This document shows positions 2,458-64,000 of a stretch of DNA of 64,000 nt, piece after piece. Every line of letters begins with the position of its first letter. Position 1 is the stretch's first letter. The translations under genes were made by a program, and so were the position numbers. The notes under the pieces were generated by a model. The model was given only the letters and a program-made list of their open reading frames with translations, did not search any database and had not been told where the DNA came from. Source of the DNA: Candidatus Omnitrophota bacterium (lineage in GTDB: Bacteria; Omnitrophota; Gorgyraeia; Gygaellales; Profunditerraquicolaceae); assembly GCA_043813305.1 (NCBI GenBank), contig JBDRLC010000064.1:32048-96047 (forward strand), in the 5' to 3' direction.

Positions 2458-2486
2458 TTTACAAAGATATGCAAAGATGTTATAAT
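2458..2486 (+). promoter_or_regulatory. Candidate sigma70-type promoter of the major pilin gene
   Basis: TTTACA (2458-2463), 17-nt spacer, TATAAT (2481-2486) preceded by TGT (extended -10). Lies about 105 nt upstream of the pilin ATG. Confidence 0.45.
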
Positions 2487-2591
2487 TGCTCCAATATTAT
2501 AAGCAAAATGAAGATCAGCTGATCTTTGCATTATATAGATGTAATTATGATATTGATAGGAAGCTAACAATAAGCTAATAGGGAGGTAGAG

Positions 2592-2990: not shown

Positions 2991-3032
2991 TTATTAGGTA
3001 AAAAGTTACAAGCGTAATTATTTACTCAAAAT

Positions 3033-3083
3033 AAAATGGCTGACTTTTCGTATTAAGTAATACGATAAAAAGTCAGCCATTTT
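3033..3083 (+). terminator. Intrinsic terminator-like hairpin after the pilin gene
   Basis: Perfect 16-bp stem AAAATGGCTGACTTTT (3033-3048) / AAAAGTCAGCCATTTT (3068-3083). It extends by CGTATT/AATACG and is flanked by A- and T-runs. Confidence 0.6.
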
Positions 3084-3094
3084 AATGATTAAAT

Positions 3095-5984: not shown

Positions 5985-7027
5985 GGAGTATTATTGCCAG
6001 TAAAAAAGCCACCGGCATCATAGCAGTAATATTCATCGTGCTTATGGCTTCGGTTATGGGAGCTACGATTACCTCTTTATTAGGTACAGACACAGGCGGA
6101 AGTATTTACTATTTACAGTCACAGCAGGCATTTTTTATTGCTGAAGGAGGCATCCAGTATGTGTTAGACAAGCTAAGGTTAGATGAGGAATATAGAGCGA
6201 GCCTTTCTACAGTAACCGAGGATTTAGGCCCAGGCAGCTTTTCCGTGGATGTTGTAGATCAGGGTTCAGGGGAATATACTATTACCTCAACCGGGACAGT
6301 AGGCCACTCCAGCAGACAGGTAGCTCAAAGCGTTGATTACACTTCCTTGCTTTTAGATCAGACTATCCACGGAGACGGAAGCTCAGTTAACTTTAGCAGC
6401 ACTACTTCTTCTACGGTAGTTGGCGCTGTCAGTTGTCACGTAAGTGTTGTAGGTTACGGAGGAGTTACGATCACCGGTGAAATAACCGAGGGTTTAGCCA
6501 GGCTGCATCCTAGTTTGGATTTTAGTTATTATGCCGGGATAGCTGATACTTATTCTACCTCTAATCTTACATTCGCCAACGGTACCTATAATGGCGTCTA
6601 CTATACAACTAAAAAAGCTACGATAGGTAATAATGTTACGTTAAACGGCTCTATTATCGCTGCGGGTTCTATAGACTTTAACGATAAAGCAGATAATGTG
6701 CAGATTTCTCAAAGTAATAATTACCCTGCTTTAGCAAGCGGCAGCGCTATCAACAGTAGTTGTAGCGGTCCCCCTTCTCAGAGAGTCGGTTTACAGAATA
6801 GCACAATTAACGGCCTAATTTTCTCTGCAGGCAATGTAACCTTTAACTATATGCAGAATACCACCTTTAATGGTTCGGTATTAGCAGACGGTAATCTTAA
6901 TTTTCAGAGTGGGAGTAATTGGACGATTGCTTACGATGAAACTATATTTGACCCAATGACCCCAGGGTTAAACGTAGGAGAAGAGCTAGAAGCTATACTG
7001 CAAGATGATTGGAATGAAAGCTATTAA
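5981..7027 (+). CDS. PilX-like pilus-associated protein with beta-helix-like C-terminal region
   Basis: Preferred start is ATG 5981 (GGAGG 5 nt upstream, ATGA overlap); the track start is 5963. N-terminal helix KKATGIIAVIFIVLMASVMGATITSLLG lacks a prepilin cleavage motif. The C-terminus is rich in N/G/S/T repeats (NVTLNGSIIAAGSIDFN..., NGLIFSAGNVTFNYMQNTTFNGSVLADGNLNF). Confidence 0.55.
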   Translation: MRSIIASKKATGIIAVIFIVLMASVMGATITSLLGTDTGGSIYYLQSQQAFFIAEGGIQYVLDKLRLDEEYRASLSTVTEDLGPGSFSVDVVDQGSGEYTITSTGTVGHSSRQVAQSVDYTSLLLDQTIHGDGSSVNFSSTTSSTVVGAVSCHVSVVGYGGVTITGEITEGLARLHPSLDFSYYAGIADTYSTSNLTFANGTYNGVYYTTKKATIGNNVTLNGSIIAAGSIDFNDKADNVQISQSNNYPALASGSAINSSCSGPPSQRVGLQNSTINGLIFSAGNVTFNYMQNTTFNGSVLADGNLNFQSGSNWTIAYDETIFDPMTPGLNVGEELEAILQDDWNESY

Positions 7028-7046
7028 TATGATACAATAATCTGCT

Positions 7047-8762: not shown

Positions 8763-8774
8763 GAATCTGAGGCT

Positions 8775-9335
8775 ATGAAAAGGATAACTAGAGAACAGAA
8801 AAAAATTATTTTTATTGCTAGCATCATCGTAGTTTTTCTTATCTGCTTCTGGGTATTTATCTATCGGCCGCAAAGCGAAAAATTCAATTCAATTAAGAAA
8901 GAATTAAAGAATACAAAAACAAAAATCGAAGAAATAAATAATATAATTCGAGGGAGAGATTTGGTGGAAGCAGTAAAAGATTTGAATATAGAGTTTAATC
9001 AAATGGTAAATCTTCTGATACTGGAGGATGAGGACGTAATATCGCATCTATCTGAGTTTGCCAGAAAGTTAAAAATAGAAGTCAAAGATATAATCCCATC
9101 AAAAAGGGAATTATTTGAGGGTCAGGTCGTCGGTTATGATATAGAGGTGCTGCCGATTTCCCTGAGCCTGGTGTGCGAGTATAAAAATTTGGGGGATTAT
9201 TTAAACTTTTTGTGGGAGGATTTCCCGGCCCTGGTAAGGATAAAGCAGCTTCAGATCTTTGAAGAAGGAGGAGGTGACAATCCTTTTTTAGATGTTAGAT
9301 TGCAAATCTTAGCTTATTTAGTTAAAGAAAAATAA
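8775..9335 (+). CDS. PilO-like pilus assembly protein
   Basis: 186 aa with an N-terminal TM helix (IIFIASIIVVFLICFWVFIY), a coiled coil and an alpha/beta C-terminal domain. Sits directly after PilM::PilN. Confidence 0.55.
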   Translation: MKRITREQKKIIFIASIIVVFLICFWVFIYRPQSEKFNSIKKELKNTKTKIEEINNIIRGRDLVEAVKDLNIEFNQMVNLLILEDEDVISHLSEFARKLKIEVKDIIPSKRELFEGQVVGYDIEVLPISLSLVCEYKNLGDYLNFLWEDFPALVRIKQLQIFEEGGGDNPFLDVRLQILAYLVKEK

Positions 9336-9337
9336 AT

Positions 9338-9796
9338 ATGGATAAGAAACGCATTGAGATAATTATCACTTCTGGTTTGGTCTTAGTCCTTATTCTTGCT
9401 TGGCTAAGGATGTTCGGTTTTATGAAAAAAAGAAAGGCTCCTGTGCCAAAGCCCAATCTTGCAGCTTCAACTCAACCCATAAGAGCGGCTAGAGAAGCTG
9501 TTATCTTAGGGTCTGAACAAGGGGGCCTTAAAGAGAATGGGAAATGGAAGGAGGAAGAGAGGTTAGGATGGGTGAGGTGTCCTTTTTCTGGCAGGGCGTA
9601 TATTAGCACTGAAGGAGCTATAGGGTTGATCCTCACCGGTATAAACTGGGATCAAGAGAAAGCCATTGCCATAATAAATAATAAAATATTAATGACAGGC
9701 GAGAAAGTAGGTCCGTATACCGTAGTTAGTATAGAGAAGGAAAAAGTAATTTTAAACGATGGTGCTGATAAGCTGGAACTCCGCCTCTCTCAATAA
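9338..9796 (+). CDS. PilP-like / GspC-HR-like small bitopic protein
   Basis: 152 aa with an N-terminal TM helix, a Pro/Ala linker and a C-terminal beta segment (AIAIINNKILMTGEKVGPYTVVSIEKEKVILND) resembling PilP/GspC homology regions. Assignment is partly by position. Confidence 0.45.
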   Translation: MDKKRIEIIITSGLVLVLILAWLRMFGFMKKRKAPVPKPNLAASTQPIRAAREAVILGSEQGGLKENGKWKEEERLGWVRCPFSGRAYISTEGAIGLILTGINWDQEKAIAIINNKILMTGEKVGPYTVVSIEKEKVILNDGADKLELRLSQ

Positions 9797-9803
9797 CCCC
9801 ATA

Positions 9804-16063: not shown

Positions 16064-16879
16064 ATGGATATATTACCGCCGATTTTAACTTTAACCGGAT
16101 TGGGAGTTGTTTTTGGGGCAGGTCTTGCTCTGGCAGCTAAGAAGTTCTGCGTAACTGCTGATCCCCGTCTGGAAAAAATATATGCTCAACTTCCCGGAGC
16201 AAACTGCGGCGCCTGCGGTAAGCCGGGATGTATCGGATTTGCCGAAGGTTTGATTCAGGGGACTTGTTCTATTGAAGGATGTGTACTAGCTGAGGAAAAA
16301 GTGCGCGAGATGATCGCAGGTGTGTTAGGGGTGGAACATAAAGCAAAATTAAAGAAGGTGGCTGTTCTGCATTGTAATGGAGGGAATAAACGGGCAAAGG
16401 ATAAATTTGAATATAGCGGCATAAGAAGCTGTCTTTCTGCTGATCTTGTTGCAGGAGGGCCGAAGGCCTGTATTTATGGCTGTATAGGATACGCGGATTG
16501 TCAGCGGGTTTGTCCCTTTGGCGCAATTACAATGAGTGCAGAAGGCCTACCGGTGGTTAATGAGGATAAGTGTACTGCCTGCGCTAAGTGTATAGTAGCA
16601 TGCCCTAAGAAACTTTTCAGTTTGGTCTCAGCTGACAAAAATTATCTTGTGCGCTGTAAATCTCTTGATCTGGGGAAAAAAGTAATGCGGGCCTGTTCTG
16701 TTGGATGTATTGCCTGCCGTAAATGTGAGAAGGCCTGTCCGCTTGAGGCAATTAAGATGATTGATAATCTTTCGGTTATTGACTATAATATCTGTGATAA
16801 CCGCGGTGAGTGTTTCAGGGTCTGTCCTACCAAGAGTATTACCAGGAAGGAAAATAAGTTATGGAAGATGCGGGCTTAA
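16064..16879 (+). CDS. rnfB: Rnf complex subunit B (polyferredoxin)
   Basis: 271 aa with an N-terminal membrane helix, LPGANCGACGKPGC, and several 4Fe-4S motifs (CTACAKCIVACP, CIACRKCEKACP, CDNRGECFRVCP). Confidence 0.9.
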   Translation: MDILPPILTLTGLGVVFGAGLALAAKKFCVTADPRLEKIYAQLPGANCGACGKPGCIGFAEGLIQGTCSIEGCVLAEEKVREMIAGVLGVEHKAKLKKVAVLHCNGGNKRAKDKFEYSGIRSCLSADLVAGGPKACIYGCIGYADCQRVCPFGAITMSAEGLPVVNEDKCTACAKCIVACPKKLFSLVSADKNYLVRCKSLDLGKKVMRACSVGCIACRKCEKACPLEAIKMIDNLSVIDYNICDNRGECFRVCPTKSITRKENKLWKMRA

Positions 16880-17484
16880 AAAATATTGCGGTCTTTGCTT
16901 CAGGAAGAGGGAGTAATTTTAGCGCGATTATTCGGGCAGTTAAAAAAGGCAAGATCAAAGCGAATCTATCTTTACTGATCTCTGATAATCCTAAGGCAGG
17001 AGCTATTGCCAGAGCAAAGCGTGCAGGAGTAAAAGTAGTCTTGGCAAAAAGGGAGGATTTTGCTACTAAGAGTGATTTTGAAAAAAGAATTATCCAGCAC
17101 CTTCAGGAGAATAATATAGAGTTAATCGTTTTGGCGGGTTTTATGCGCGTTCTAGGGCCTGATCTTATACAGGCTTATGATCAGCGGATTTTAAACATAC
17201 ATCCTGCAATACTTCCCTCTTTTAAGGGTGCGCATGGGATAAAGGATGCTTTTGACTATGGCGTGAAAGTCACAGGTGTAACGGTTCATTTCGTAGATGA
17301 AGAGATGGACCACGGTCCGATAGTCTTACAGGCTCAGGTCCTGATAGAAGAAAATGATACCCTTGAATCTCTGGAGAAAAAGATACATAAAATAGAGCAT
17401 AAGCTCTATCCGCAAGCAATCAGACTGTTTCTAGAAGGAAAGATAAGAGTGGAAGGGAGGAGGGCAAAGATTACTAGTGTTTAG
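16861..17484 (+). CDS. purN: Phosphoribosylglycinamide formyltransferase
   Basis: 207 aa with IAVFASGRGSNFSAII, LIVLAGFMRVL, NIHPAILPSFKG and VHFVDEEMDHGPIV. Overlaps rnfB by 19 nt. Confidence 0.92.
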   Translation: MEDAGLKNIAVFASGRGSNFSAIIRAVKKGKIKANLSLLISDNPKAGAIARAKRAGVKVVLAKREDFATKSDFEKRIIQHLQENNIELIVLAGFMRVLGPDLIQAYDQRILNIHPAILPSFKGAHGIKDAFDYGVKVTGVTVHFVDEEMDHGPIVLQAQVLIEENDTLESLEKKIHKIEHKLYPQAIRLFLEGKIRVEGRRAKITSV

Positions 17485-18337
17485 GTTGCGCTAAGATTGC
17501 CGCCTGATTTAAAACCACCGTATCCTGCTTAAGTAAATCAATTAATCTTACCTCGCTAAAACCTCTAAATTCATAAGTATCTACACAATAAAATATTATT
17601 TTTAATATTTCCTGTTTGATATCGATTTCTTCATCCAGAGGTTTGATTTGTTTTATGGAATATTCAAAAAAAAGTGTGTTATCGGCAAAATATCCGTTTG
17701 ATTTCTCTACTTCAAAATATTCCTTCCAATTCTCATCCTGAAATTTAGCAGTTATTCTTTGAGAGATCAGCGCCACAAGGAAATCTTCAAACCTTATATC
17801 AAAAGCCTGAATATGTTCTCCGGTTGCATCATCTATCGCCTCAGGATTTTCTGCAAAGCCGATTACATATCTGCGGTTAACCTCTGTCCAGGGGATTACC
17901 CCGGCATAAGATTTTTGAGTATCTAAGACATTCCCGGCGATAGTATAATCCAGCCCGGCTTTAATATCGGAAGCAACCATTACGTAAAACTCTAAGTTGT
18001 TTTCAGAACTCAATAATACTCTCCCGATAGAGCTTAAGATATTATTTAATTCATGCGATATCTCTTCGTCAAATACCTTTCCTTCTACTATCCCATAGTC
18101 CTTATCGAGTAGTTTATCCATAGGTGCATATATCCAGAGGGTGTTTGTGGACCTTTTGGTTACAACATCCAGGCCGAATTCTTCTTTACAGATTTTTTTT
18201 ACAGTAGAGAGGATATTTTCTTCTTTATAGGTTGGCTCAATCGGGTCTTGTTGACAGCCAGCTAAAATGAAAGAAAAGAGGAGGTTAAAAAGGAGGACGG
18301 TTTTTGCCGAATTCTTTAAAGATAGCTTCAATCTCAT
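17474..18337 (-). CDS. Lipoprotein of unknown function
   Basis: An internal Met gives [28 protein letters not shown], a signal peptide plus lipobox (LAGC). The longer track ORF (to 18385) would overlap the upstream gene by 101 nt. No family recognised. Confidence 0.6.
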   Translation of the reverse strand: MRLKLSLKNSAKTVLLFNLLFSFILAGCQQDPIEPTYKEENILSTVKKICKEEFGLDVVTKRSTNTLWIYAPMDKLLDKDYGIVEGKVFDEEISHELNNILSSIGRVLLSSENNLEFYVMVASDIKAGLDYTIAGNVLDTQKSYAGVIPWTEVNRRYVIGFAENPEAIDDATGEHIQAFDIRFEDFLVALISQRITAKFQDENWKEYFEVEKSNGYFADNTLFFEYSIKQIKPLDEEIDIKQEILKIIFYCVDTYEFRGFSEVRLIDLLKQDTVVLNQAAILAQPKH

Positions 18338-19985
18338 CGTAATTGAGCTCTTCTTTGGCGAGCAATTCCTGGGCAAAGCGATCAAGAAGGTCAGATTCTT
18401 TTTTTAGCAGGTTTTCTACTTCTTTGAAGCAGCCCTGTAGTATTTCCTGTACTTCGTTATTTAGTTGTTCTTTGATCTTCTCTGATACAAAGGAAACGCT
18501 TTGACCTCGAAATATTCCGTAATCTTGAGGCATAGTTTCTAATAAGCTGTAGTTTCCTACCAGCCCGGATTTTCCCATTCCCCATTCCCAGACCATCCGG
18601 TGGGCGAGCCACATCGCATGAGTAAAATCCTGGCTTACACCGGAGGTGGTGGAATTTAATTTTATCCCTTCGGCAGCGTATGAACCCAGGCTCACCTTAA
18701 TATCTCCCAGATATTGGTCTTTAGTACGGACATGTATTTCTTCGCGGGGATGTGGCATGACGAAACCCAGTGCGCCGCCTCGGGCTAAAATCGTAGCCTT
18801 AAACACATCCTTATGGGGTGCTAGAAACCACATCGAAATTGCGTGGCCTGCTTCATGATAAGCAATCTTCCTGCGTTCGCTTTCAGTGAATACGATCTTA
18901 TGCTTGATGCCCATTTCGACTCTATCATAGGCTTCAGAGATCTCTTTCATTGAGATTGATTCTTTTTTATTGCGTACGGTGATAAGCGCTGCTTCTCTGA
19001 TCAGGTTAGAGATATCCGCAGGGCTATTACCTACCGTTAATCTTGCTAATCTTTGTTTATCGAGTGAGGAATCGTGCTTTACGCTTTTGAGATAATAGTC
19101 AAACAGCTTTTCTCTTTCTTCTAAATTAGGCTTGCTGACAAAAATCTTACGGTCAAATCTCCCCGGTCTGAGTAATGCCGGGTCTAAGAAGCTTTCCGGA
19201 GCATTGGTGGCACCGATTACGATTATATTATAGTCTTTCTCTTTAAGGCCATCCATCTCGATGAGCAGTTGATTCAAAGTGGTGTTAGATTCACGTTGTC
19301 CGCCGAATCCCCGGTCGGTTGCACGCTGTGCTCCTACAGCATCTAGTTCATCGATAAATATAATACATCCGCCCTCTGCGTAAGCCATCTGTCCGGCGTG
19401 TTTGAAGAGTTTGCGGATGCGGCTGGCACCCACCCCTACAAACATTTCGATAAATTCTGAGCCGGACATCGCTAAGAAAGGAAGCTTTGATTCTGTGGCG
19501 ATCGCCTTGGCAAGATAGGTTTTGCCGCAGCCCGGAGGACCGATCGTTAATATGCCTCTTAAGATTTTGCCGCCGATACGTTGCAGGTGCGCCCGGTCTC
19601 TGACTAGGCGTACGACCTCCAATGCCTCTTCCTTTGCCTCATCCATGCCGATGACATCATTCCAGTGGATGCGTAGGTCATCCGGGCCTACCTTTTTTGT
19701 ATTAAGCCGGGTAAATTTAGCAGCTCCGCCGCGCATGATCCAGATCCACATCAATCCCCACATCGGGATGAACATGATGTAGCTGACCAGCCAGACATAC
19801 ATATGTATTCCGGATTGGGCGAGGGTTGCTTTTTTAAAGTATGATTCTGAGGTTTTCCAGGCGGCAACCGAATTGCGGATGAATACCGAAAGGGAGATCA
19901 GTATAACGATGATGACCACAGCGACGATTATTCCAATCCAGTGGTATTTGAAGAATAGGTGAATCTTTCTTTTATTTATTTGCAT
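18285..19985 (-). CDS. FtsH-like membrane AAA+ zinc metalloprotease with a minimal extracytoplasmic loop
   Basis: 566 aa. Two N-terminal TM helices are separated by only about 25 residues. Walker A GPPGCGKT, Walker [35 protein letters not shown]41 zinc motif HEAGHA. Confidence 0.85.
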
Positions 19986-22007: not shown

Positions 22008-22130
22008 TTGTGTGTGGGTAAGGGTAAGGATGCCGGTTTGGTTTATGGGTAAGGTAGTTGGTGTTTTAACACCTAACCCTAACCCAACCACCAAACCAAC
22101 TTCCTAACCTTAACCCTAACCTTCACACAA
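22008..22130. repeat. Family-C long imperfect palindrome (copy C1), G-rich arm GGGTAAGGGTAAGG / C-rich arm CCTTAACCCTAACC
   Basis: The ends TTGTGTG (22008-14) / CACACAA (22124-30) enclose a hairpin of about 110 nt. About 85-90% identical to 55549-55664 by eye. Confidence 0.75.
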
Positions 22131-54520: not shown

Positions 54521-55540
54521 ATGATCATTAAATTCACCCGGCAATTTTTTATTCTGATGAAGGCAGGGATCCCGCTCCTAAGGACCCTGAAGGTTATTCA
54601 CTCTCAGTTACCAAAGGGCAGATTTAAGAATGATATAGAGAAGGTAATCTTAGGCGTGCAGGAGGGCAGGAGTCTATCGGAGTCTCTGGCTGAGGCTTCG
54701 CGGTTTTTTTCTTTATTTTATATAAATATGATCAAGGCCGCTGAAATTAGCGGCAACTTAGTTGCTATCTCAAAGGAGCTTTCAGATTTTCTCAGTCGGC
54801 AACGCAGGATTACTAAATCCGTTCAGACGGCTTTGATGTATCCGGTCCTGGTTCTGATAGTGGCAATAGTTATATTGATAGTATTGTTTACTTTTATTAT
54901 CCCGGTATTCGTAAGGATCTTTGAGGACCTGGGGGGCAGCCTGCCGCCGGCAACACTATTTCTCATCGGATTAAGCAAATTTACGGTTAATTGGGGCTGG
55001 ACAATATTGCTTACAGGATTTATTATTACATTCTCATTTTTCCTGCTCTCCCGTCAGGCCTCCGGTAAATATATCATTAATCAGATAGCCTGGCGGATAC
55101 CATTATTCGGCAGGGTAACAAAAACAGTCCATATCGCCAGATTCTGCCGGGTGCTGGGAACTCTCCTTTCTTCGGGAGTAAATCTGACCAGTAGCCTGTC
55201 AGTCCTTGAGGACGCAAGTACTTCTGTAATGTTAAGCCGCGCGATCTCTGATATCAGGTTTAAGCTTGAGCAGGGGGATAGTCTTTCAAAGAGCATGAAA
55301 GAGTGCAGTCTTTTCCCTTTGACTTTGGTTGAAATGATCCAGGTCGGTGAAGAGAGCGGAAAGATCTCTGATATGTTTGCGGATGCCGCAGAAGATTACG
55401 AAGAGGAAGTTACTTTTGCCGTAACCGGGTTCCTCTCTGTTCTTGAACCGCTTCTTATCTTAATCATGGGCGGGATTATCGGGTTTATTGTGATTGCGCT
55501 GTTCTTCCCGATCTTTACCATGAGCACTTTGATTAAATAA
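54521..55540 (+). CDS. PilC/GspF-family platform protein, short form (locus 2)
   Basis: 339 aa. It begins directly in the first T2SSF domain (FTRQFFILMKAGIPLLRTL). A second T2SSF domain (ARFCRVLGTLLSSGVNLTSSL) and three TM helices follow. Confidence 0.85.
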   Translation: MIIKFTRQFFILMKAGIPLLRTLKVIHSQLPKGRFKNDIEKVILGVQEGRSLSESLAEASRFFSLFYINMIKAAEISGNLVAISKELSDFLSRQRRITKSVQTALMYPVLVLIVAIVILIVLFTFIIPVFVRIFEDLGGSLPPATLFLIGLSKFTVNWGWTILLTGFIITFSFFLLSRQASGKYIINQIAWRIPLFGRVTKTVHIARFCRVLGTLLSSGVNLTSSLSVLEDASTSVMLSRAISDIRFKLEQGDSLSKSMKECSLFPLTLVEMIQVGEESGKISDMFADAAEDYEEEVTFAVTGFLSVLEPLLILIMGGIIGFIVIALFFPIFTMSTLIK

Positions 55541-55548: not shown

Positions 55549-55664
55549 AGCTAGTAATTAGGTAAGGGTAAAGATGCCGGTATGGTTGTTAGGTAAGGTA
55601 GTTGGTGAATTTAGACCTAACCCTAACCAAACTACCAAACCGGCTTCCTAACCTTAACCCAGCT
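55549..55664. repeat. Family-C long imperfect palindrome (copy C2)
   Basis: AGGTAAGGGTAAAGATGCCGGTATGGTTGTTAGGTAAGGTAGTTGGTG-loop-GACCTAACCCTAACCAAACTACCAAACCGGCTTCCTAACCTTAACCC, collinear with C1. Confidence 0.75.
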
Positions 55665-55679
55665 ACAAGCAGTTAATAT

Positions 55680-56039
55680 ATGAATAAAAAACACGGATTT
55701 ACTTTAATAGAGATACTGATTGCTTTATTAATCTTCGGCTTGGGGGTAGTGATTTTGTTTAATCTTTTCCCCTTAAGTTTTCAGGCATTTTCTTACAGCC
55801 GGAAATTACAGGATGTTTCTCTTTTGGCGCAGAAGAAATTCGAAGAACTCAAATCAAGCCGGGATCTAACCGAAGTTCAAAGCAGCCAAAAAGACGGGGA
55901 TTTAGAGTGGAGTATTAAGATCGGCCCGGTTGATCCGGGCGGGGACGCTAGTTTGATGTTAGTCGAGTTAAATATAGAATTCGATTTCCAAGGCAAGACG
56001 CATAGTGAAAGATTTGTCACATATTTATCCAATGAATAA
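55680..56039 (+). CDS. Pseudopilin (GspI-like), prepilin-type N-terminus
   Basis: MNKKHG|FTLIEILIALLIFGLGV. 119 aa. Confidence 0.75.
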   Translation: MNKKHGFTLIEILIALLIFGLGVVILFNLFPLSFQAFSYSRKLQDVSLLAQKKFEELKSSRDLTEVQSSQKDGDLEWSIKIGPVDPGGDASLMLVELNIEFDFQGKTHSERFVTYLSNE

Positions 56040-58719
56040 CAGGTCTCAGGCGTTAGTAATCGTAATCAGTTTTCTGGGGATGCTTTCTCTTATCGGAGTT
56101 GCTTTTTTCTCTCTTTCTCAGGCTCAAAGGTCATCCAGCGTCCATGAGCTCAACCGTGTAAAGTCGCTCTACTTAGCCGAAGCAGGCATAAACTATACAA
56201 AGCGCGTTCTAGAGCTGGATAGGCAGGATAACCGTATAGACTCTAAAGCAGATATAATCTTTAAGCACTTTCAGGGTGAAGAAGCGGACCTGAATCATGA
56301 CGGCAAAAAAGAGAGCAAATGGTTCTATGTCCTTGATTCCGAAGGAAAGACCTTTGGCCGCTTCGGAATACGCATACTTGATGAAGCTTCCAAGGTCAAT
56401 GTTAATAGCGTAGAATTATCGACTTTTGATAGACTGCTTTCTCAAGTAGGCATAGAGGGCAAGGAAGCTAGTTCAATATATTCTAAGCGTCCGTTCAGCG
56501 TCATAGAAGAGATAGGTTCAGTCCTGGATAGGGATGAATTCAATAAGCTCGAAGATTTCATCACTATCTATTCCCAGGATAGCGAGGTAGATCTCAATAG
56601 AAACAGAAGACACTATTTAAACTCTTTAAACGTACAGTTGATTCTGGAAGGATTCTTGAGGCAGGGTGTCAAAGATGCCTACCAGAAAGCAGCGATCTTA
56701 AAAGATGCTTCTGATGCGGACCTTAGACAAACGATACTGGATAAATTCCATTCGGGCAGCCTTACTCCTTCCGGCATCTCTGAATCCGGAGGCTGGATAA
56801 ATAGAGGCACTTATTTTGAGGCGCCTGTAGGTGGCAGTTTTGGCAGGTTCATCTGGTCTAATCTAGGGGTAGAGGACGGGGAATATTTCTGTTTTCTATA
56901 CGGCACTGAGAGTTCGGATGTGGTGGGTGAGATAATCGGCGTGCCTATTTTTTCCGGAGAGGGCCTGATTGATAAAGTTATCGTCAGCGGCGGTTCATTT
57001 ACGCTTGATATTACCCCTGCGCAGGATGCAAACAGTAAATTTTCATATATTGATCTGGTGAGTACCTCCCAAAAGAATGGTCTTAAGAAGCAAGTTATCA
57101 CCGGAAGCGAAGGGCTGGTAATAAATGAATTGATGGTTAAACTTATTCAGGAATTAACCGTAGACCTGCCAATAATTGATCCGGGCGAGAGTTTGGCGCA
57201 TACCTTTAGCGATATTCAACCTGGGTTTTATTATTTAAAGGTTTTAGCCAAACAGACCGGAGGCCTTGTCGGAGATGTTACGGTTAAAAATAAAACTGCG
57301 GGGGATTTACGCGATAATGAGTATTTCCCGTATTCTGTAGAAGTCGGACAGGATCAGGAATTAAAATTAATGATTAAAAATAATTCTTATGAGAGTTCCG
57401 GATTAAAAGGGATAAGTCTTTCCCAGCAGCCGGATGCTGAATTTATTGAGATTTTAAATATCACTCCCTCTGAAATCGATTTATCTAATTTTTCCCTGGA
57501 AGTTTACACTGATGATGATCAGCTTGTTGCCGGCTGGCCGGGAATCATTCCTGAAGGAACAAGAATCCAGGCCTACCAGCACCTAGTTTTAAATGTTGAC
57601 GATGCAGATACATCTCTCTCACCGGAAAACTTAAGGAATAATAAGATTTCTTTTAAGCAGAGCTGGCGCTTTAACGGCATAGGTTTAAACTTTCAGGATT
57701 ATTCTGACACTATAGATAAAAGTTTTGACCTTATCCCTGATGGCGGAGGTAAGGTGATTCTAAAAGATGTTTATGGAAAGAGGGTTGATGCCGTGGAATA
57801 TTCAGGCTCTCAGGTGCCTGCTTTTAAAAGTATTGAAAGGCCTGATCCTACGCTTAAAAGTGACCAGGATCAGGATGGCTTATTTGACGGCTGGAATTTC
57901 TCTGAAGATAAAGATAGGGCGACGCCTAAATTGACTAATGAGAATAGTGGAATGTACACTAGGGAGGGGAATAGGTTAGTTAAACACAGTCCCAGCGAAA
58001 TAACGATCTTTAATCGTCCGCTCTTGGGATTAAAGGAAGTAATGGAGCTGCCTACAGGTGAAAGCTGGGAAGAATTCGTGATCTCTGATCTGGCAAGGAT
58101 CTGCGATGCGTACGCTTACGAACTGGATAGTTTTATATTAGACGCTAAACTCCTTGATTCTAAAGGAGATAGAGAAATTATACAAATTAATAATATCTCA
58201 CCGGGTTCTTACTGGCTATCTATAACAGCGGTTGATTCAGAAGCAGCTCAATTCACCGTCTCCTATAAAAAAGATACGCAGGAAGAGTTTCAGCAGCCGT
58301 CTTCTTTAGTTATTTCAGACGGTATAGCTGATTATGGGAAGATAGAGTTGGATGCCGAAGAAGAGTATAATCTACAATTAGAGGTGATTAATACTTTGGG
58401 TAAGAAGCTCAATCTAAATAAGATAATACTTGAGCCTGTAGCCTTTGAACCGGGAAGGATAAATTTAAACACAGCTGAAGCCGAAGTCCTACGAAGCGTG
58501 CTTAATTCGGAACACTTAGTGCTAAAGATTTTAGAGAATAGGCCTCTGGGAGAAGCATTAGGAGTAGGAGAGCTGTTGCTTTTAGATACCGGATTTCTTC
58601 CGCTTTATAATATATTCACCGTAAAATCAGATATATTCGGGATTGAATGCATAGGTGCATATATATCCTTAGAAAAACCCCTGTCCCCGCAAACTATCCG
58701 CTCCGTAATCAGAAGATAG
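56032..58719 (+). CDS. Giant GspK-like minor pseudopilin carrying an embedded lamin-tail-domain (LTD)-like module
   Basis: Preferred start is ATG 56032 (ATGAATAA overlap). GspK-type N-terminus (RSQALVIVISFLGMLSLIGVAFFSL, LYLAEAGI, ILDEASKVNVNS) and C-terminus (GRINLNTAEAEVLRSV...FTVKSDIFGIE). LTD-like motifs in the middle (LVINELM ... EFIEILNITPSEIDLSNFSL ... GGKVILKDVYGKRVDAVEY). Confidence 0.65.
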   Translation: MNNRSQALVIVISFLGMLSLIGVAFFSLSQAQRSSSVHELNRVKSLYLAEAGINYTKRVLELDRQDNRIDSKADIIFKHFQGEEADLNHDGKKESKWFYVLDSEGKTFGRFGIRILDEASKVNVNSVELSTFDRLLSQVGIEGKEASSIYSKRPFSVIEEIGSVLDRDEFNKLEDFITIYSQDSEVDLNRNRRHYLNSLNVQLILEGFLRQGVKDAYQKAAILKDASDADLRQTILDKFHSGSLTPSGISESGGWINRGTYFEAPVGGSFGRFIWSNLGVEDGEYFCFLYGTESSDVVGEIIGVPIFSGEGLIDKVIVSGGSFTLDITPAQDANSKFSYIDLVSTSQKNGLKKQVITGSEGLVINELMVKLIQELTVDLPIIDPGESLAHTFSDIQPGFYYLKVLAKQTGGLVGDVTVKNKTAGDLRDNEYFPYSVEVGQDQELKLMIKNNSYESSGLKGISLSQQPDAEFIEILNITPSEIDLSNFSLEVYTDDDQLVAGWPGIIPEGTRIQAYQHLVLNVDDADTSLSPENLRNNKISFKQSWRFNGIGLNFQDYSDTIDKSFDLIPDGGGKVILKDVYGKRVDAVEYSGSQVPAFKSIERPDPTLKSDQDQDGLFDGWNFSEDKDRATPKLTNENSGMYTREGNRLVKHSPSEITIFNRPLLGLKEVMELPTGESWEEFVISDLARICDAYAYELDSFILDAKLLDSKGDREIIQINNISPGSYWLSITAVDSEAAQFTVSYKKDTQEEFQQPSSLVISDGIADYGKIELDAEEEYNLQLEVINTLGKKLNLNKIILEPVAFEPGRINLNTAEAEVLRSVLNSEHLVLKILENRPLGEALGVGELLLLDTGFLPLYNIFTVKSDIFGIECIGAYISLEKPLSPQTIRSVIRR

Positions 58720-58828: not shown

Positions 58829-59011
58829 ATGGGTAAGTCCATTTATGCTGCGCAGGAAATAGCAGACATCTTGGGCATATCAAAGCAGACCCTCTTGCGC
58901 TACGAGAAGAGAAAGATCTTCCCGCGACCCCGCAGGAATCCGATTAATAAACACCGGGAATATAGTCCCGATGATCTTTCTCGATTGAAAAAAATATTAG
59001 GCAGGGCTTAA
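58829..59011 (+). CDS. MerR-family HTH-only DNA-binding protein
   Basis: 60 aa. AQEIADILGISKQTLLRYEKRKIFPRPRRNPINKHREYSPDDLSRLKKIL matches the MerR N-terminal wHTH pattern (..TLRYYE..GL..P.R...GYR.Y...DL..L..I). No dimerisation or effector region. Confidence 0.7.
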   Translation: MGKSIYAAQEIADILGISKQTLLRYEKRKIFPRPRRNPINKHREYSPDDLSRLKKILGRA

Positions 59012-59021: not shown

Positions 59022-60440
59022 TTGATGATCTTAGGAGAAAAAAGTATTATCAGTATAGATATTGACGAAGGCGCTTTAACTGCGGCTAAGCTGAGCAAGA
59101 AGAAGAACCTGATCTCTTTAGATGGTTTTAAAAGCGTTAATTCACTAGCACAGCTTGCCGGCGATCCCGCTTTTAAAGGTAAGTCAGTGGTATTGGCATT
59201 CCCTGCTCAAGCCCTGCTCTTTAGAAGTTTCTCAATTGATAGCACATTTCTAAGAGGGCCGGAGCAGAAGAAGAGGATCGATAGTTTTCTCTCGCGTCAA
59301 AATCTTCCCCTGAATCTCGATGATTGTTACTGGCAGACATTTGTCTTAGGCGGCCGTCTTAATCTAATCGCTGCGAAGAAGAAGATAGTCGATAACATTA
59401 TCTTGAGGATACCCGAAGAAGGATTTAATATCGCCGGAGTCATTCCTTCATTTCTGGCTTTATACAATTTAGTCGTTTATAATTATCCGGAAAAGGAAAG
59501 ATTCACTCTCCTGAATTTACGTAATTCTTCAAGCGAACTGCTTATTGTTGAGAAAAAGCAGGTCTGGCTATATCCTTTAGCCGCAGGTAAAGAGCATATC
59601 AAGGAAGATCTAAACAATGAGAATATATTATTTCAGGAGTTAAGGAGGATTCTAAATACCCATTATCTACAGAATCCCTCAGCGGACCCGAAGCCGAATT
59701 CTCTTTACCTGGTAGGAACAGAATATTCCGAGATTTTCAATTCGGTTCTTAAGCAGACCTTTACCAACCACGATTTAATTCCTCTGGAGCCGTTAAAGAA
59801 GATAACTAGCCTGGCGGATAAATCCTTTAGAATTCCGGCTACATTAACCTTAAGTATCGGCTTGGGGCTTAGTTTTCTTTCTGCCGGGGGCCTTGTCTCA
59901 GTTAACCTTTTAAAGGCGAAATTAAAAAAAGATATGATCTTTGTGGGTGAGATTTTACTGGAGAAAACCCTGGTAGGCCTAGGAGGCGTGGTTTTTATTT
60001 TTCTGTTATTCTCAGTGATAAAATCCGCTGTAGTGCTGAAATCTCAAAGTGCGCTCCTTAAGTCTAGTAGGTCTCAGATGGAATCTGCTTTACCACAGGT
60101 AAAGGAACTTAAGAAAAAGAAGGAGGCCCTGGAAGGGTTAACAGATTTCCTGGGGCAGGAGTTAAATCAGCAAACTTTATATCTGAAAGCCTTATCTGCA
60201 ATCTCAGAGAATAAATCACCTAATCTTGTGATCGAGCAGTTTGAAGCAAAGGTAAGGCAGGGAGTGATTGAGGTGTTTCTTTCCGGGAGAGCAGGTAATT
60301 ATGAGGAGATTAATCAGTTTTTAAGTAAGCTTAAAAATAATCAGAGTTTCAGGGAAGTGAAGATGCTTTCTTCGGAATTACCAAGCCGCGAAGCAGCAGT
60401 AGAAGCGGTTGATTTTCAATTATCTTTTAAGGCCGAATGA
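59022..60440 (+). CDS. PilM-like :: PilN-like fusion (locus 2)
   Basis: 472 aa (TTG 59022 or ATG 59025). N-terminal PilM-like region, TM helix (LVGLGGVVFIFLLFSVI), coiled coil and PilN-like C-terminus (VIEVFLSGRAGNYEEINQFLSKLKNN). Confidence 0.6.
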   Translation: MMILGEKSIISIDIDEGALTAAKLSKKKNLISLDGFKSVNSLAQLAGDPAFKGKSVVLAFPAQALLFRSFSIDSTFLRGPEQKKRIDSFLSRQNLPLNLDDCYWQTFVLGGRLNLIAAKKKIVDNIILRIPEEGFNIAGVIPSFLALYNLVVYNYPEKERFTLLNLRNSSSELLIVEKKQVWLYPLAAGKEHIKEDLNNENILFQELRRILNTHYLQNPSADPKPNSLYLVGTEYSEIFNSVLKQTFTNHDLIPLEPLKKITSLADKSFRIPATLTLSIGLGLSFLSAGGLVSVNLLKAKLKKDMIFVGEILLEKTLVGLGGVVFIFLLFSVIKSAVVLKSQSALLKSSRSQMESALPQVKELKKKKEALEGLTDFLGQELNQQTLYLKALSAISENKSPNLVIEQFEAKVRQGVIEVFLSGRAGNYEEINQFLSKLKNNQSFREVKMLSSELPSREAAVEAVDFQLSFKAE

Positions 60441-61507
60441 TGATCTTAAAGGTTTCTGAAAAAACTAAACTGATTACAGGGGGTTGGCTTTTAGCATGCA
60501 TCCTCCTTCTGGTAATAGCTTCAGTTTTGAAGGGGAGGATAAATTTCGTAAAAAGAGAAAACCAGGAGAACCGTTCTTTATTAGACGAGGCCTTACCTGA
60601 TTTTAACGATCAGAGCCCGCAAAAATTAGCTCAAGATATAAAGAATTTAAAATTAAACATTTTAAGCCAGGAGTGCTTATACAGCAGGCAGGATTCATGG
60701 CTTAAAGAGGGTTATGATCCGGGCATATTATTTGCCGAAGACTTAAGCATCATCAACCAATATTTAAAACAGAAAGCCCAGAATAAAAATACGGAATTTG
60801 CCGACATAGAGTTTCTACAAAAAATGCCTTCAGAGCAGGAGGCAGTTTATCTTCTAAGTCAACTCCACGGTTTAAAAGAGATCCTTAATTTGGGTATAGA
60901 ACTGGGCGTAAATTTTGAAGTGATCAAGCCTCAGCCAATCCAGGAGCTAGAGGATGATAAAGGCATTAGGGTAGCAAAGACTTATCTTGAGTTGAGCTGC
61001 CCGAAAGAAACGCTGATTGAATTTTTGATACAGATGAATTATCTTGTCCCAAGGGCGTATTTGGAATTCTTGAGTATAAAGTCGCAAGGTGAGGTTTTTG
61101 ATTTAGTTTTCTCATTTAAAAATATTATTTTAACACTGGATTGGGCTAAGGATGATCTAGGAGAGGAAGCGGCAATTAAATCCCCTGATTCATTGCTTGG
61201 GGCAGGGCAGGGTTATATTTCTGTTTTAAGGGGCAGGAACCCGTTTCATTTAGAAACTCCCAAGATAATCAGCGCTACCGAGGTTAAAGAAGAAGTAAGG
61301 CTTGCTCCTCGATTTCTTTATAAAGGGACGGCTGTTTCAAAAGAGAAAGAGATTGTAGTAATCCAGGATACTATGAGTGAAGAGACGGTTTTTATCGGAC
61401 TTAACGGTAGTTATGGCGATTTTAAGTTAAAGGAGTTTTCCGATCAGACGGCTGTGTTTGAGAACGTCAAGGATAACAGTACAATCATCATAAAAAAGGA
61501 AGAGTGA
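60437..61507 (+). CDS. Bitopic assembly protein, PilO/GspM-like core with PilP-like C-terminal beta segment
   Basis: 356 aa with a TM helix (GGWLLACILLLVIASVL). PilO-like alpha/beta core (AKTYLELSCPKETLIEFLIQMNYL...FLSIKSQGEVFDLVFSF). C-terminal KGTAVSKEKEIVVIQD...VFIGLNGSYGDFKLKEF. The assignment is weak. Confidence 0.4.
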   Translation: MMILKVSEKTKLITGGWLLACILLLVIASVLKGRINFVKRENQENRSLLDEALPDFNDQSPQKLAQDIKNLKLNILSQECLYSRQDSWLKEGYDPGILFAEDLSIINQYLKQKAQNKNTEFADIEFLQKMPSEQEAVYLLSQLHGLKEILNLGIELGVNFEVIKPQPIQELEDDKGIRVAKTYLELSCPKETLIEFLIQMNYLVPRAYLEFLSIKSQGEVFDLVFSFKNIILTLDWAKDDLGEEAAIKSPDSLLGAGQGYISVLRGRNPFHLETPKIISATEVKEEVRLAPRFLYKGTAVSKEKEIVVIQDTMSEETVFIGLNGSYGDFKLKEFSDQTAVFENVKDNSTIIIKKEE

Positions 61508-63582
61508 AAATGAAAAAAGAAAAATTATTTCCGAGAGTGCTGATTGTAGCAATCGCTTCAATGGTTTTGTTATTCGGTAGCTTGGCAGCAGAGTCAGACA
61601 CCTCTGAGAAGATCAACGCTGATATTGACTCATTATATAAAGACTCCCTGAGTTATTATTCCAGTATTCAGTATGAAAATGCCATGGAGGGTTTAGAATT
61701 AATCCTGGCGATACTCGATACTTATCCCGATATTGAAAAGTGGCGGGTAAGTAAGAAGATCGGCCCTTCCAGAGAGGATGTTGTAAGCCTGGTTGAGAAG
61801 ATCAATAAAGAGATGAAAGTAGATTTGACTAAGCGAAAGTTAGAAGTAGTTGATATCGCTAAGGAGCGGGTGAGTACGGATCGTGAGATCGTCAATAGGA
61901 TAAAGCGCCTCTGGAGTAATTCGCGTAAACTCTATGGCCAGGGATTATATGAAGATGCGATAGAAAATTTTGAAGAGATCGTAGAATTAGAAAAGGGCTC
62001 CAGGCTACGATATACATTCCAGGCAAAGGATTATATTGCTCAGGCAAAGGAGAAGTTACTCCAAGCAAAGGAGGAGGATTTATCAAAAGAAGTTGAGATT
62101 AAAGAGAAGGATATGATTGAAGAAGTGCTTAAACAACAGATACCTCCTTATGTAGAACCTCCTTTGCATGTAGAGGAGCAGGAGGTGACTTCTTTGGTAA
62201 GGCCTCCTGAGATCAGAAAGAAACTCAAGGCGACCAAGGTAACTATGGACTTTGATAAAGTAGGGTTAAAATCAGTAATGTCATTCCTTGCTAATGAATC
62301 AGGCGTTAATTTTGTCGCCTCTAGCAGGGTTCTGGAACTGAAACCCGTGGTAAGTACCAGCCTTAAAGACACCAGTATTGAGGAGGCGATAAAATTTATC
62401 ATCAAAAGCTTGAATTTAGTCTATAGGATTGATAAAGAAGTTGTCTGGATTGCGCATCCGGATGAGATAGCAAATGAGCCGATGGAGACCAAAGTTTATT
62501 ATCTGAATAAAGGCGGAGGGCTATTTACGGAGTTCAGTCCGATTACCGGCGGTTCCGCTGACACGGGACTTGGAGGAAGCTCTGCTTCGATTACCAAGAT
62601 AACTACAATAGAAGATACCTTAAAGGAGATAGTTCCCTGGCCTGATGATGCCAAACTGACCTATGATAAGCGCCTTAACGCCCTGATCGTACGCAATACT
62701 CCCCAAAACCTTCAGATGCTTGAAGACATTCTTTATACTTTAGATATCGTGCCTTGTCAGGTGCTTATCGAAGCCCGCTTTATCGAAGTGGATATCACTG
62801 ATACCAAGGAATTGGGCCTGGAGTGGAATCTCAATAGTGATTCGCCTTTTTCGAAGAAAGACGGAACCATGGAGCAGGGAATTCCTGCGGATAGCGGAAT
62901 TGATTTTTCATCCTTTACCAGGGCAGCCGAGGGATTAAACCTTACTTATCAGGGAGTATTAACTAAGCCTCAGTTCCAGATAGTATTACATGCACTGAGT
63001 GAGAAGAAAAAAATAAAGACCTTATCCAGCCCGCGCATCACTACGATGAATAACCAGCTGGCAACGATTAAGGTGGTGGATGAATGGATTTATCCGACAC
63101 GCTATGAATATGAGATCGTGCAATCTGACTTAAACGGGGATGGGGATTTTAGCGATGCAGGCGAGACATCCTATAAGAACGTACCTAAAGATTTTCTCCG
63201 CCGTGACGTGGGCATACTTTTAAAGGTAATCCCGGCGGTAGGTGCTGACAAGAAGACGATAAATCTTTCTCTTATCCCCGAAGTAAGCGAGGCAAGCGCG
63301 GATGCATTTGAATATGCCGGAGACGTATCATTGCCTAAGTTTACCTCGCGTAATCTTTCTACCACCGTAGTAGTAGATAGCGGAGATACGGTGGTATTAG
63401 GAGGCCTGATTAAAGAAAGCCGCACCAATACGGTGACCAAGGTTCCCCTGTTAGGGGATCTTCCTTTTATCGGGAAATTATTTAGAAAAGATGCGGATAG
63501 TATCCAGAGAAAGAACCTTTTGATTTTCGTTACCGCCAAAGTCTTGACATCTTCCGGCGAAGAAGTGGTAATAAACCAATAA
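61504..63582 (+). CDS. Secretin (GspD/PilQ family) with a ~230-aa helical/TPR-like N-terminal extension
   Basis: 692 aa (GTG 61504 or ATG 61510). Signal peptide, N0-like VTMDFDKVGLKSVMSFLANESGVNFVAS, N1-like LNALIVRNTPQNLQMLEDIL, and a secretin core with VPLLGDLPFIGKLFR. Confidence 0.88.
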   Translation: MKMKKEKLFPRVLIVAIASMVLLFGSLAAESDTSEKINADIDSLYKDSLSYYSSIQYENAMEGLELILAILDTYPDIEKWRVSKKIGPSREDVVSLVEKINKEMKVDLTKRKLEVVDIAKERVSTDREIVNRIKRLWSNSRKLYGQGLYEDAIENFEEIVELEKGSRLRYTFQAKDYIAQAKEKLLQAKEEDLSKEVEIKEKDMIEEVLKQQIPPYVEPPLHVEEQEVTSLVRPPEIRKKLKATKVTMDFDKVGLKSVMSFLANESGVNFVASSRVLELKPVVSTSLKDTSIEEAIKFIIKSLNLVYRIDKEVVWIAHPDEIANEPMETKVYYLNKGGGLFTEFSPITGGSADTGLGGSSASITKITTIEDTLKEIVPWPDDAKLTYDKRLNALIVRNTPQNLQMLEDILYTLDIVPCQVLIEARFIEVDITDTKELGLEWNLNSDSPFSKKDGTMEQGIPADSGIDFSSFTRAAEGLNLTYQGVLTKPQFQIVLHALSEKKKIKTLSSPRITTMNNQLATIKVVDEWIYPTRYEYEIVQSDLNGDGDFSDAGETSYKNVPKDFLRRDVGILLKVIPAVGADKKTINLSLIPEVSEASADAFEYAGDVSLPKFTSRNLSTTVVVDSGDTVVLGGLIKESRTNTVTKVPLLGDLPFIGKLFRKDADSIQRKNLLIFVTAKVLTSSGEEVVINQ

Positions 63583-63597: not shown

Positions 63598-64000
63598 ATG
63601 GAACAGATAGGTTTAGAAGAGAGCCTGTTAAAAGCAGGGATAATAAACTCAGAGCAGCTTGAGTCGATAAAACTTGAGAAGGAGCGCAGTTCTGCTTCTA
63701 TCGTCGGGGCAATCCGGCGTCTTAATATTGTCGCTGAAGATATTCTGATTGATTTCCTCGCCCAAAAACTGCATCTGCCAAAATACAGCTTAAAGGATTT
63801 TACTCCTACAGAAGAAATGATCACTATTTTACCTACTGATTTGGTTTGGAAGAAGAAAGTCATCCCTCTCTTTAAAACTAATACCGAGTTAGCTGTAGGG
63901 GTTCTGGATCCATTTGACTTCAGCCTTTTCGAGGAGTTACGTTTGCGCACCGACCTTTTTATCAAGCCGCATTTAGTTAAAGACGAAGAATTGACCCAGG
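63598..64000 (+). CDS. pilB: PilB/GspE-family ATPase, N-terminal (MshEN/T2SSE_N-type) part; 3' end outside the window
   Basis: ATG 63598 behind GAGGAAGAG; the frame is open to the window end. MEQIGLEESLLKAGIINSEQLESIKLE...DILIDFLAQKLHLP...VIPLFKTNTELAVGVLDPFD is typical of the GspE N-terminal domain. Not listed in the ORF track because no stop is reached. Confidence 0.8.
   Translation, partial: MEQIGLEESLLKAGIINSEQLESIKLEKERSSASIVGAIRRLNIVAEDILIDFLAQKLHLPKYSLKDFTPTEEMITILPTDLVWKKKVIPLFKTNTELAVGVLDPFDFSLFEELRLRTDLFIKPHLVKDEELTQ

Follow-up and report, generated by a model that had tools for sequence, protein, structure and literature searches.

The apex of the pseudopilus, as seen in the solved GspI-J-K complex, is the alpha-domain of GspK. 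Among pseudopilins, GspK is reportedly the only class without a glutamate at position 5 (Glu5), an absence said, from the 2008 GspI-J-K structure of Korotkov and Hol, to mark the first-assembled, tip subunit. The ComZ protein of Thermus thermophilus has been argued on steric grounds to be confined to the tip, to act there as a receptor, and to approach in size the limit of the secretin channel (PMC6561018). A survey of modular type IV pilins lists in its supplement six proteins that join an N-methyl pilin signature to a lamin-tail domain (LTD; IPR012902-IPR001322), plus one with a GspG domain, all uncommented and none of them studied (PMC8179133). Here, we describe a protein of 895 amino acids (aa) from Candidatus Omnitrophota bacterium, encoded at 56032..58719 of a 64,000-nucleotide (nt) stretch (GenBank assembly GCA_043813305.1, contig JBDRLC010000064.1, forward-strand positions 32,048 to 96,047) that was analyzed over its whole length and is hereafter called the window. 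Its architecture as a whole, which we hold with high confidence, is that of a GspK-type minor pseudopilin framework carrying a large inserted beta-sandwich region, an LTD among its modules. Coordinates below are positions within the window, residue numbers are those of the 895-aa product, and the gene, its parts, and the genes of its cluster all lie on the + strand.

The framework is recognizable at both ends of the protein. Residues 1–224 (56032..56703) correspond to the N-terminal part of GspK, comprising the alpha-1 helix, the first pilin beta-strands, and the first helical subdomain, which resembles sterile alpha motif (SAM) and helix-hairpin-helix (HhH) folds, whereas residues 794–895 (58411..58716) supply the second helical subdomain, of T2SSK/HhH type, and the last two pilin beta-strands. 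Direct profile scores for this assignment are weak: Pfam T2SSK (PF03934) reaches 15.1 bits (E=0.032, residues 810–840) against a cut-off of 24.2, the NCBIfam GspK equivalog NF037980 gives 27.8 bits against a cut-off of 130 (E=1.7e-6) over residues 7–144 only, and PF21687 has no match in the protein. The Pfam scan by which the preliminary description had proposed to check its GspK reading is thus sub-threshold for the window protein itself, while PF03934 is matched at E<0.01 by 26 of 32 relatives (best E=1.6e-9).

Because the direct scores were weak, homology was traced through intermediates, from a profile of the 32-member family, through a search of 1.84 billion representative proteins, to a set of canonical-size proteins and from these to the PDB. 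The family search also finds proteins of 375–446 aa that match both ends of the profile; this canonical-size set stands above the Pfam cut-offs for T2SSK, T2SSK_1st, and HHH_3, and its alignment matches XcpX (5vtm_X, 3e-9) and GspK (3ci0_K, 2e-8) in the PDB. When the family profile was aligned with the canonical-size set by hhalign, residues 1–224 matched with a probability of 99.8% (E=1.5e-29), and residues 794–895 matched residues 278–382 of one 394-aa member, P0166, in a local alignment (Prob 98.8%, E=5e-17); both ends of the protein are therefore homologous to canonical GspK, as the preliminary description had proposed from motifs. The intervening residues 225–800 have no counterpart in canonical GspK in the same comparison (Prob 0.2%). 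Since Pfam places T2SSK_1st at residues 120–178 and T2SSK at 294–354 of P0166, the insertion separates the two helical subdomains that make up the GspK alpha-domain.

The N-terminus is likewise consistent with GspK. Residues 1–66 (56032..56229) hold a short leader, a prepilin-type cleavage region (R-S↓QALVIV), and a long hydrophobic alpha-1 helix with no Glu at +5, as indicated by the N-terminal alignment, the modeled helix at residues 3–66, and the NCBIfam GspK match from residue 7. Across the family the consensus reads K/R-G↓QAL(V/I)V; position +5 is hydrophobic, and Glu occurs there in none of the N-termini shown. A model built with AlphaFold 2 (AF2) on the family alignment has a mean predicted local distance difference test (pLDDT) score of 85.2 and a predicted template modeling (pTM) score of 0.79; beyond the helix at 3–66, its order of secondary-structure elements is consistent with a pilin fold interrupted by a helical domain. 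When the full-length model was searched with Foldseek, the 50 matches listed were dominated by beta-modules and included no GspK structure; the top matches (PAPP-A, Cry toxins, and binary-toxin pores), with template modeling (TM) scores of ~0.1, were dismissed as meaningless.

The second element of the architecture, the LTD proposed in the preliminary description, is borne out by sequence and by predicted structure. In the native sequence, Pfam PF00932 matches residues 460–591 (33.8 bits against a gathering score of 34.3, E=4.7e-8, model positions 22–108), and the domain is matched in all 32 aligned relatives (best E=1.3e-10). Foldseek searches of the PDB with the family-based model return the immunoglobulin-like (Ig) fold of lamins A/C and B2 with a probability of 1.00 and target TM scores of 0.55–0.62 (3gef_A 0.62, 1ifr 0.61, 2lll 0.59, 6rpr_B 0.55). 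No PDB match to the LTD was found at the sequence level with a spliced LTD profile; the scaffoldin or adhesin-repeat matches that whole-family and spliced-LTD profiles gave in the PDB (E=0.15–0.6) were set aside as chance-level.

The LTD is not contiguous. Its main body occupies residues 458–600 (57403..57831; Pfam PF00932, Foldseek), and its first strand lies upstream at residues 359–369 (57106..57138; "GLVINELMVK"), which at a conservation of 0.92 is the most conserved stretch of the protein, against 0.57–0.74 elsewhere. Between them, residues 370–457 (57139..57402) form a nested beta-sandwich of ~90 aa with a "PGFYYLKV" motif. The preliminary description had read LVINELM (362–368) as the start of the LTD, and in-silico removal of residues 372–461 supports it: the Pfam LTD score rises from 36.8 to 42.4 bits, above threshold, with the match then spanning model positions 6–108 of 109, and the same splice in three relatives yields 45.7, 45.9, and 35.7 bits. 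In the AF2 model, a seven-stranded beta-module (372–449) separates the strand at 362–367 from the strands that resume at 458. The splice test and this strand order together indicate that a nested domain splits the LTD between its first strand and the rest. Such two-level nesting, of one domain within an LTD and of that LTD within the GspK alpha-domain, is an unusual detail.

The LTD is one module of a larger insert. Residues 225–793 (56704..58410), ~570 aa rather than the ~550 first estimated, are absent from canonical GspK and strongly acidic, and consist of four beta-sandwich modules: module A, the LTD, a paralogue of A nested in the LTD, and module C, with a conserved linker between the LTD and C. 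The initial view of the insert as an LTD-like module was thus correct for the LTD and incomplete for the three further beta-sandwiches. Module A (residues 233–358; 56728..57105), all-beta in both models, and the nested module are homologues by hhalign (Prob 95%, E=2.7e-8), and the nested module is, on profile comparison, probably related to module C (Prob 73%, E=3e-5); none of modules A, nested, and C resembles the LTD by hhalign. Module C (residues 701–803; 58132..58440) is prealbumin/Ig-like; some relatives show fn3_3, CarboxypepD_reg, or SdrD_B in this region, and there is a weak scaffoldin match. The last strand of module C (residues 794–803) falls within the hhalign match to canonical GspK and so overlaps the C-terminal part of the framework. 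The linker (residues 601–700; 57832..58131), placed from alignment, model, and charge, is partly structured and acidic, carries invariant W621, N636, N638, W679, and D692, and has no Pfam match.

The charge of these modules bears on one function that the architecture brings to mind, namely uptake of DNA from outside the cell by a ComZ-like receptor that tips a competence-type pilus, with the LTD and the HhH-type subdomain as the capturing parts. Several extracellular nucleases carry a fused LTD, for which DNA binding has been proposed, the second GspK subdomain is HhH/ComEA-like, and ComZ itself is a GspK-like tip pilin that binds DNA (PMC6561018). However, the insert has a net charge of −42 (family median −34), the LTD alone has a net charge of −10 and an isoelectric point (pI) of 4.35, and every insert module has a pI of 4.3–4.6; it is chiefly the net charge of −42 that disfavors a DNA receptor. 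In addition, the HhH region is degenerate in the family (15 bits), ExeM can degrade extracellular DNA without its LTD (PMC6085458), and no ComEA or ComEC genes were seen in the related loci examined. We regard DNA capture as improbable.

The gene lies where the preliminary description placed it. Its open reading frame (ORF) runs from ATG 56032 to TAG 58717–58719 and is supported by 35 homologues and the AF2 model; the 896 aa of the preliminary description included the stop codon. A longer form does have the 904 aa given there, although its upstream start codon is GTG (56005) and not ATG. Sequence comparison offers arguments for both starts. The upstream pilin gene ends, stop codon included, 8 nt into the ORF that begins at the ATG (ATGAATAA), and this overlap recurs in homologous loci; the GTG-extended leader ("MKDL...") is similar to the longer leaders of the relatives P0018 and P0022, and GTG 56005 is a possible alternative start. 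All eight motifs originally noted are present in the translation at their relative positions: LYLAEAGI at 46–53, ILDEASKVNVNS at 115–126, LVINELM at 362–368, AEFIEILNITPSEIDLSNFSLEVY at 469–492, IPEGTRIQAYQHLVL at 506–520, GGGKVILKDVYGKRVDAVEYSG at 571–592, RINLNTAEAEVLRSV at 809–823, and FTVKSDIFGIE at 862–872, with a gap from LVINELM to AEFIEILN of 100 rather than ~110 aa. The sequencing runs that contain the gene are exclusively DNA runs of a biofilm metagenome. A fusion or assembly artefact was considered and ruled out, because more than 30 independent sequences share the full architecture.

A word-indexed search returned 35 relatives besides the window protein, nearly all of them full-length and most of 893–984 aa with 44–54% identity; those with names come from Omnitrophota metagenome bins and are labeled "GspK," "PulK," "lamin tail domain-containing protein," or "hypothetical." When one genome per GTDB species was searched, all 12 loci with a long match belonged to Omnitrophota (33–89% identity), and an exhaustive search of representative proteins gave 73 matches at E<=1e-30, ~30 of them end to end and 900–1111 aa long. 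Full-length relatives were found in Omnitrophota only.

Beyond these full-length relatives, the same site in GspK proves permissive. To follow the architecture outward, the family profile was split into parts and scanned over 184 retrieved proteins. Some are canonical GspK-like proteins of 375–463 aa that join the N- and C-terminal parts without an insert; others, of 680–1090 aa, carry unrelated inserts, among them the non-LTD insert of a Chlamydiota protein of ~1000 aa (P0093). The 686-aa P0096, encoded at 3029–5089 of locus L023 (a contig of Logan ERR14788038), contains a single unsplit LTD (47.6 bits) together with T2SSK (25.6 bits), both above threshold. Omnitrophota proteins of 1000–1640 aa (e.g., P0071) contain the N-terminal, LTD, and C-terminal parts, and an Auribacterota protein of ~1000 aa (P0120) is a weak case, with a weakly LTD-like insert at this site. 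A last group, P0142–P0184, of 2000–3300 aa, combines a pilin-like N-terminal helix and an LTD without a match to the GspK C-terminus; these may be very large pilin-anchored surface proteins, which could be relevant to the giant proteins reported beside T2SS-like loci (T2SS, type II secretion system) of Omnitrophota. Judged by these sequences, the window family looks like an elaborated form of a simple LTD-in-GspK design.

Different modules at the same loop in different lineages are the pattern expected of a displayed, exchangeable binding module. Tentatively, Omnitrophota and their neighbors of the Planctomycetota–Verrucomicrobiota–Chlamydiota (PVC) group, most of which depend on hosts, may use this loop, which joins the two helical subdomains, as a general cassette site for exchangeable tip recognition heads, in a series that would lead from a single LTD to the four-module head and on to proteins of up to ~1,640 aa, and that the 2,000–3,300-aa proteins may extend. 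Were this so, Omnitrophota would recognize hosts or prey by means of the LTD head, and a part of their very large surface proteins would be anchored at pilus tips.

The same series bears on the opposite proposal, in which the insert has no external ligand and is instead a structural plug or anchor, one, for instance, that docks the filament tip into the secretin or fastens it to the envelope of the cell itself. A membrane-tethering role of LTDs, as far as the work of Mans et al. (2004) is relayed in a later paper (PMC6085458), would suit such a part, as would an insert that is as conserved as the core and a compact model (pTM 0.79). A conserved machine contact is nonetheless a poor fit to lineages with quite different inserts, or none, at the same site, and the proposal appears to us decidedly unlikely.

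The explanation that we favor for the whole, with somewhat more conviction than doubt, is that the protein is the capping subunit, of GspK/PilX class, of an Omnitrophota-specific type IV filament machine, and that the insert is a binding head at the tip, likeliest an adhesin. As the GspK alpha-domain forms the apex of the solved complex, an insert within that domain should project from the filament tip. The small Glu5-bearing GspI/PilV-like pilin encoded next to it would be the first partner of the GspK-like tip, and filament extension would be driven by the assembly ATPase, whose gene follows that of the secretin. The insert is predicted to fold into one compact head and not a flexible chain, as the pTM suggests; the LTD and its companion sandwiches could then serve as binding or scaffolding modules, and the head could attach the filament by binding a polymer on the surface of a host cell, a prey cell, or a substrate. 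The adhesin function specifically we consider evenly balanced. It would accord with the prediction that Omnitrophota are host-attached and dependent on type IV pili (PMC10066038). Two precedents also agree with a binding head at the tip, namely ComZ, in which a beta-domain is inserted into a GspK-like tip pilin (PMC6561018), and the modular pilins, onto which adhesive modules are grafted (PMC8179133).

Several observations weigh against this explanation. No ligand is apparent, none of the insert modules confidently matches a characterized binding domain, and the function of bacterial LTDs is itself unresolved (PMC6085458). Module A modeled alone (pLDDT 88.3) has no significant PDB match; its list of structural matches is enriched in jelly rolls of the carbohydrate-binding module families CBM35 and CBM6, at TM scores of at most 0.43. 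For want of a significant match to module A alone, a carbohydrate-binding call was not made for the insert, and the CBM35 matches of the full model (prob 1.0) could not be assigned to any domain. Conservation of the insert roughly equals that of the pilin core, and the insert hence does not resemble a fast-evolving host-range determinant. The putative prepilin peptidase site of the window protein (R-S↓QALV, 56032–56060) has Ser at −1, where relatives have mostly Gly and a few Ala. Estimated from its mass, a head of ~63 kDa would measure at least ~5 nm across, near the limit of the secretin channel. Finally, the cluster contains no retraction ATPase and no obvious major pilin, and the GspF, GspD, and GspE models slightly outscore PilC, PilQ, and PilB, with none at its NCBIfam cut-off.

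The last of these points raise the most serious competitor, a possibility to which we give real but clearly minority weight: a true T2SS in which the filament stays inside the cell and the protein is the periplasmic tip of the pseudopilus, its head recognizing folded cargo, such as the large surface proteins or glycoside hydrolases of Omnitrophota, and pushing it through the secretin. The best NCBIfam matches of platform, secretin, and ATPase are to GspF, GspD, and GspE; no PilT-like gene was found in the window, where T2SSE-type matches occur only at 1–924 and 63604–63993; the orders I-J-K and G-G-x-I-J-K seen in relatives are those of classical T2SSs; and T2SS-like loci adjoin giant secreted proteins in Omnitrophota. 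Yet none of the Gsp matches attains its family cut-off, the assembly proteins are of PilM/PilN type (Amuc_1101-like) rather than GspL/M/C, the N-terminus of the ATPase is of the MshEN type seen in pilus ATPases, and no conserved cargo candidate adjoins the cluster in the loci examined. Since the core parts score below cut-offs and the signals are mixed, the machine is left between T2SS and type IV pilus (T4P), and is, from its genes, perhaps best regarded as a divergent PVC-group version of the type IV filament system, a T2SS/T4P hybrid.

The genes behind this assessment form a conserved operon. At least 10 independent Omnitrophota loci share the order of a GspF-like protein (340 aa), a small pilin, the LTD-bearing GspK, a 60-aa MerR-type helix-turn-helix (HTH) protein, a PilM/N-like protein, a ~360-aa protein, a secretin, and a GspE/PilB-type ATPase with MshEN, and the order around the gene in the window is the same as in these related loci, from which the genes past window position 64000 were inferred. 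Upstream, the GspF/PilC-like platform protein (54521..55540), with its 339 aa, is missing ~65 residues at the start of the GspF model (Pfam T2SSF E=2e-54; NCBIfam GspF positions 67–401) and is syntenic in all related loci, where its short length is kept at 338–342 aa; the T2SSF protein of the window's other filament cluster has 403 aa. The small minor pilin (55680..56039; 119 aa), GspI/PilV-like and translationally coupled to the GspK-like gene, has the N-terminus G↓FTLIE with Glu5, a Pfam N_methyl match, weak PilV/GspI matches, and a weak match to the gene at the GspI position of L023.

Downstream lie the MerR/excisionase-type HTH protein (58829..59011; 60 aa; Pfam MerR_1 E=1.1e-8), a PilM/PilN-like (GspL-like) assembly protein (59022..60440; 472 aa) that is syntenic and has a Pfam PilN match and a weak PilM-like match of the Amuc_1101 family, and a conserved, syntenic protein with no assigned family and no Pfam or NCBIfam match (60437..61507; 356 aa). 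The HTH protein is more conserved (65–73% identity in related loci) than its PilMN-like and 356-aa neighbors (32–53%), and it may be an operon-internal regulator. The secretin (61504..63582; 692 aa; Pfam Secretin E=6.6e-40, with GspD, Amuc_1098-family, and PilQ matches all under cut-offs) is longer than the 547–563 aa of its counterparts in loci L001 (region compared, 16137–18469) and L002, where a separate 214-aa gene precedes it. As the end of the L001 214-aa gene maps to 61900–61992 (31 aa, 45% identity), within the N-terminal part of the window ORF, the two genes may have fused in the window genome. The assembly ATPase begins at 63598..64000 and extends past the window; profile matches identify its start as GspE/PilB-type with an MshEN-like N-terminus, and its full-length L001 homologue carries MshEN and T2SSE.

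Related loci vary at the margins of this order. One has a prepilin peptidase directly upstream, and a distant relative (25% identity) shows pilin, GspJ-like, and LTD-GspK genes in the order I-J-K. The GspJ-like gene of related loci stands either directly upstream of GspK or after the ATPase, the latter position lying outside the window. In L023, the cluster reads GspG, GspG, x, I-like, GspJ-like, K, PilMN, an Amuc_1100-family protein, x, a tetratricopeptide repeat (TPR) protein, and a secretin, and it connects LTD-in-GspK proteins with pilus clusters of the Akkermansia type.

The spacer between the GspF-like and pilin genes holds a palindromic element of ~105 nt (55560–55670), with a second copy, 87% identical and also intergenic, at 22017–22116. 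It folds as a long imperfect hairpin (minimum free energy −47.6 kcal/mol, z=−4.6, with 0 of 200 shuffles as stable) and was not found in the related loci; a scan of 54–64 kb with Rfam gave only a sub-threshold microRNA-hairpin lookalike over the palindrome. It looks like a small repeat of repetitive extragenic palindromic (REP) or miniature inverted-repeat transposable element (MITE) type.

Elsewhere in the window, a second type IV filament cluster spans positions 1–9800, with the 3′ part of a T2SSE ATPase (34–939), a full-size T2SSF (1209–2420), a TPR protein, two N-methyl pilins (4575–5093 and 5481–5984), a PilM-PilN fusion (7047–8762), and two small ORFs; no secretin was found in it. It includes a 354-aa PilX/GspK-like protein (5963–7027) without an HhH domain that matches the GspK N-terminal part at 95% by hhalign. 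Positions 10754–49100 contain ordinary chromosomal genes, including a major facilitator superfamily (MFS) transporter, the Rnf complex (12–17.5 kb), FtsH, enolase, ApbE, two histidine kinases, a GH94 phosphorylase-like protein, a purine biosynthesis block (33–45 kb), serine hydroxymethyltransferase (SHMT), and NrdR.

The interest of the protein lies in its setting. Omnitrophota are widespread, uncultured, and ultra-small, and are thought to live attached to other cells; a conserved subunit that would display a large head at the tip offers a concrete candidate for the way in which they recognize partners, and one that can be expressed and tested on its own. The family also places an LTD in a defined structural setting, the predicted filament apex, which could help to assign the function of bacterial LTDs. 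Moreover, the tolerance of the GspK alpha-domain for very large insertions at one site bears on how tip pilins pass through the secretin. Part of this is already known, in that databases automatically label the family both "GspK" and "lamin tail domain-containing protein," and architectures of pilin plus LTD have been tabulated. The belief expressed in the preliminary description that no LTD-bearing GspK had been described agrees with the literature library searched, in which no paper was found to combine lamin tail and GspK; searches pairing the lamin tail domain with "pilin" or "type IV pil" gave unrelated papers only, and the papers on Omnitrophota that were consulted mention pilus and T2SS-like clusters and not this protein.

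Among known systems, GspK and its homologue XcpX (3CI0 chain K, 5VTM chain X) and the window protein both begin like a prepilin and lack Glu5; what the window protein would further share with them is a pilin fold, predicted from its order of secondary structure, into which a helical domain of two SAM/HhH-like subdomains is set. Its gene lies beside a GspI-like pilin, in related loci also near GspJ-like ones, and among GspF/D/E-like core genes, as in those systems. The window protein is, however, ~3x longer, with ~570 residues of beta-sandwiches between the helical subdomains, and its machine has PilM/N-type parts and not GspL/M/C. ComZ (PMC6561018) is likewise a GspK-like pilin with a large inserted beta-rich domain, yet its insert is a beta-solenoid between the last two beta-strands, in contrast to sandwiches inside the alpha-domain, and it binds DNA, whereas the window insert is highly acidic at net −42; no ComZ-like sequence similarity was detected in the PDB profile searches. 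The Akkermansia Amuc_1098–1102 cluster is linked to the window machine through the matches of its secretin to Amuc_1098 and of its PilM-like protein to Amuc_1101, weak and far under cut-offs, and through the Amuc_1100-family protein in the related locus with the simpler LTD-bearing GspK.

From the side of the inserted domain, ExeM and other bacterial LTD proteins (PMC6085458) also carry this Pfam domain, on proteins that are secreted or sit at the cell surface, and the lamin A/C Ig fold is matched. In ExeM, the LTD stands beside a hydrolase and its role is unsettled, while the LTD described here is split by a nested domain and lies within a pilin. Modular type IV pilins, such as PilB of Streptococcus sanguinis (PMC8179133), offer a parallel in principle, as they unite a pilin module with a non-pilin domain for display at the tip. 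In them, the module is appended C-terminally to an ordinary pilin, as opposed to being inserted into GspK, and the survey of them required the IPR012902 signature, for which the window protein has no match in Pfam. A GspK framework and an LTD nonetheless occur here in one polypeptide, which makes the protein a modular pilin sensu Raynaud et al. (2021). The LTD-bearing GspK of Omnitrophota is thus a new, lineage-specific variation on the known modular-pilin principle, and not a new kind of machine.

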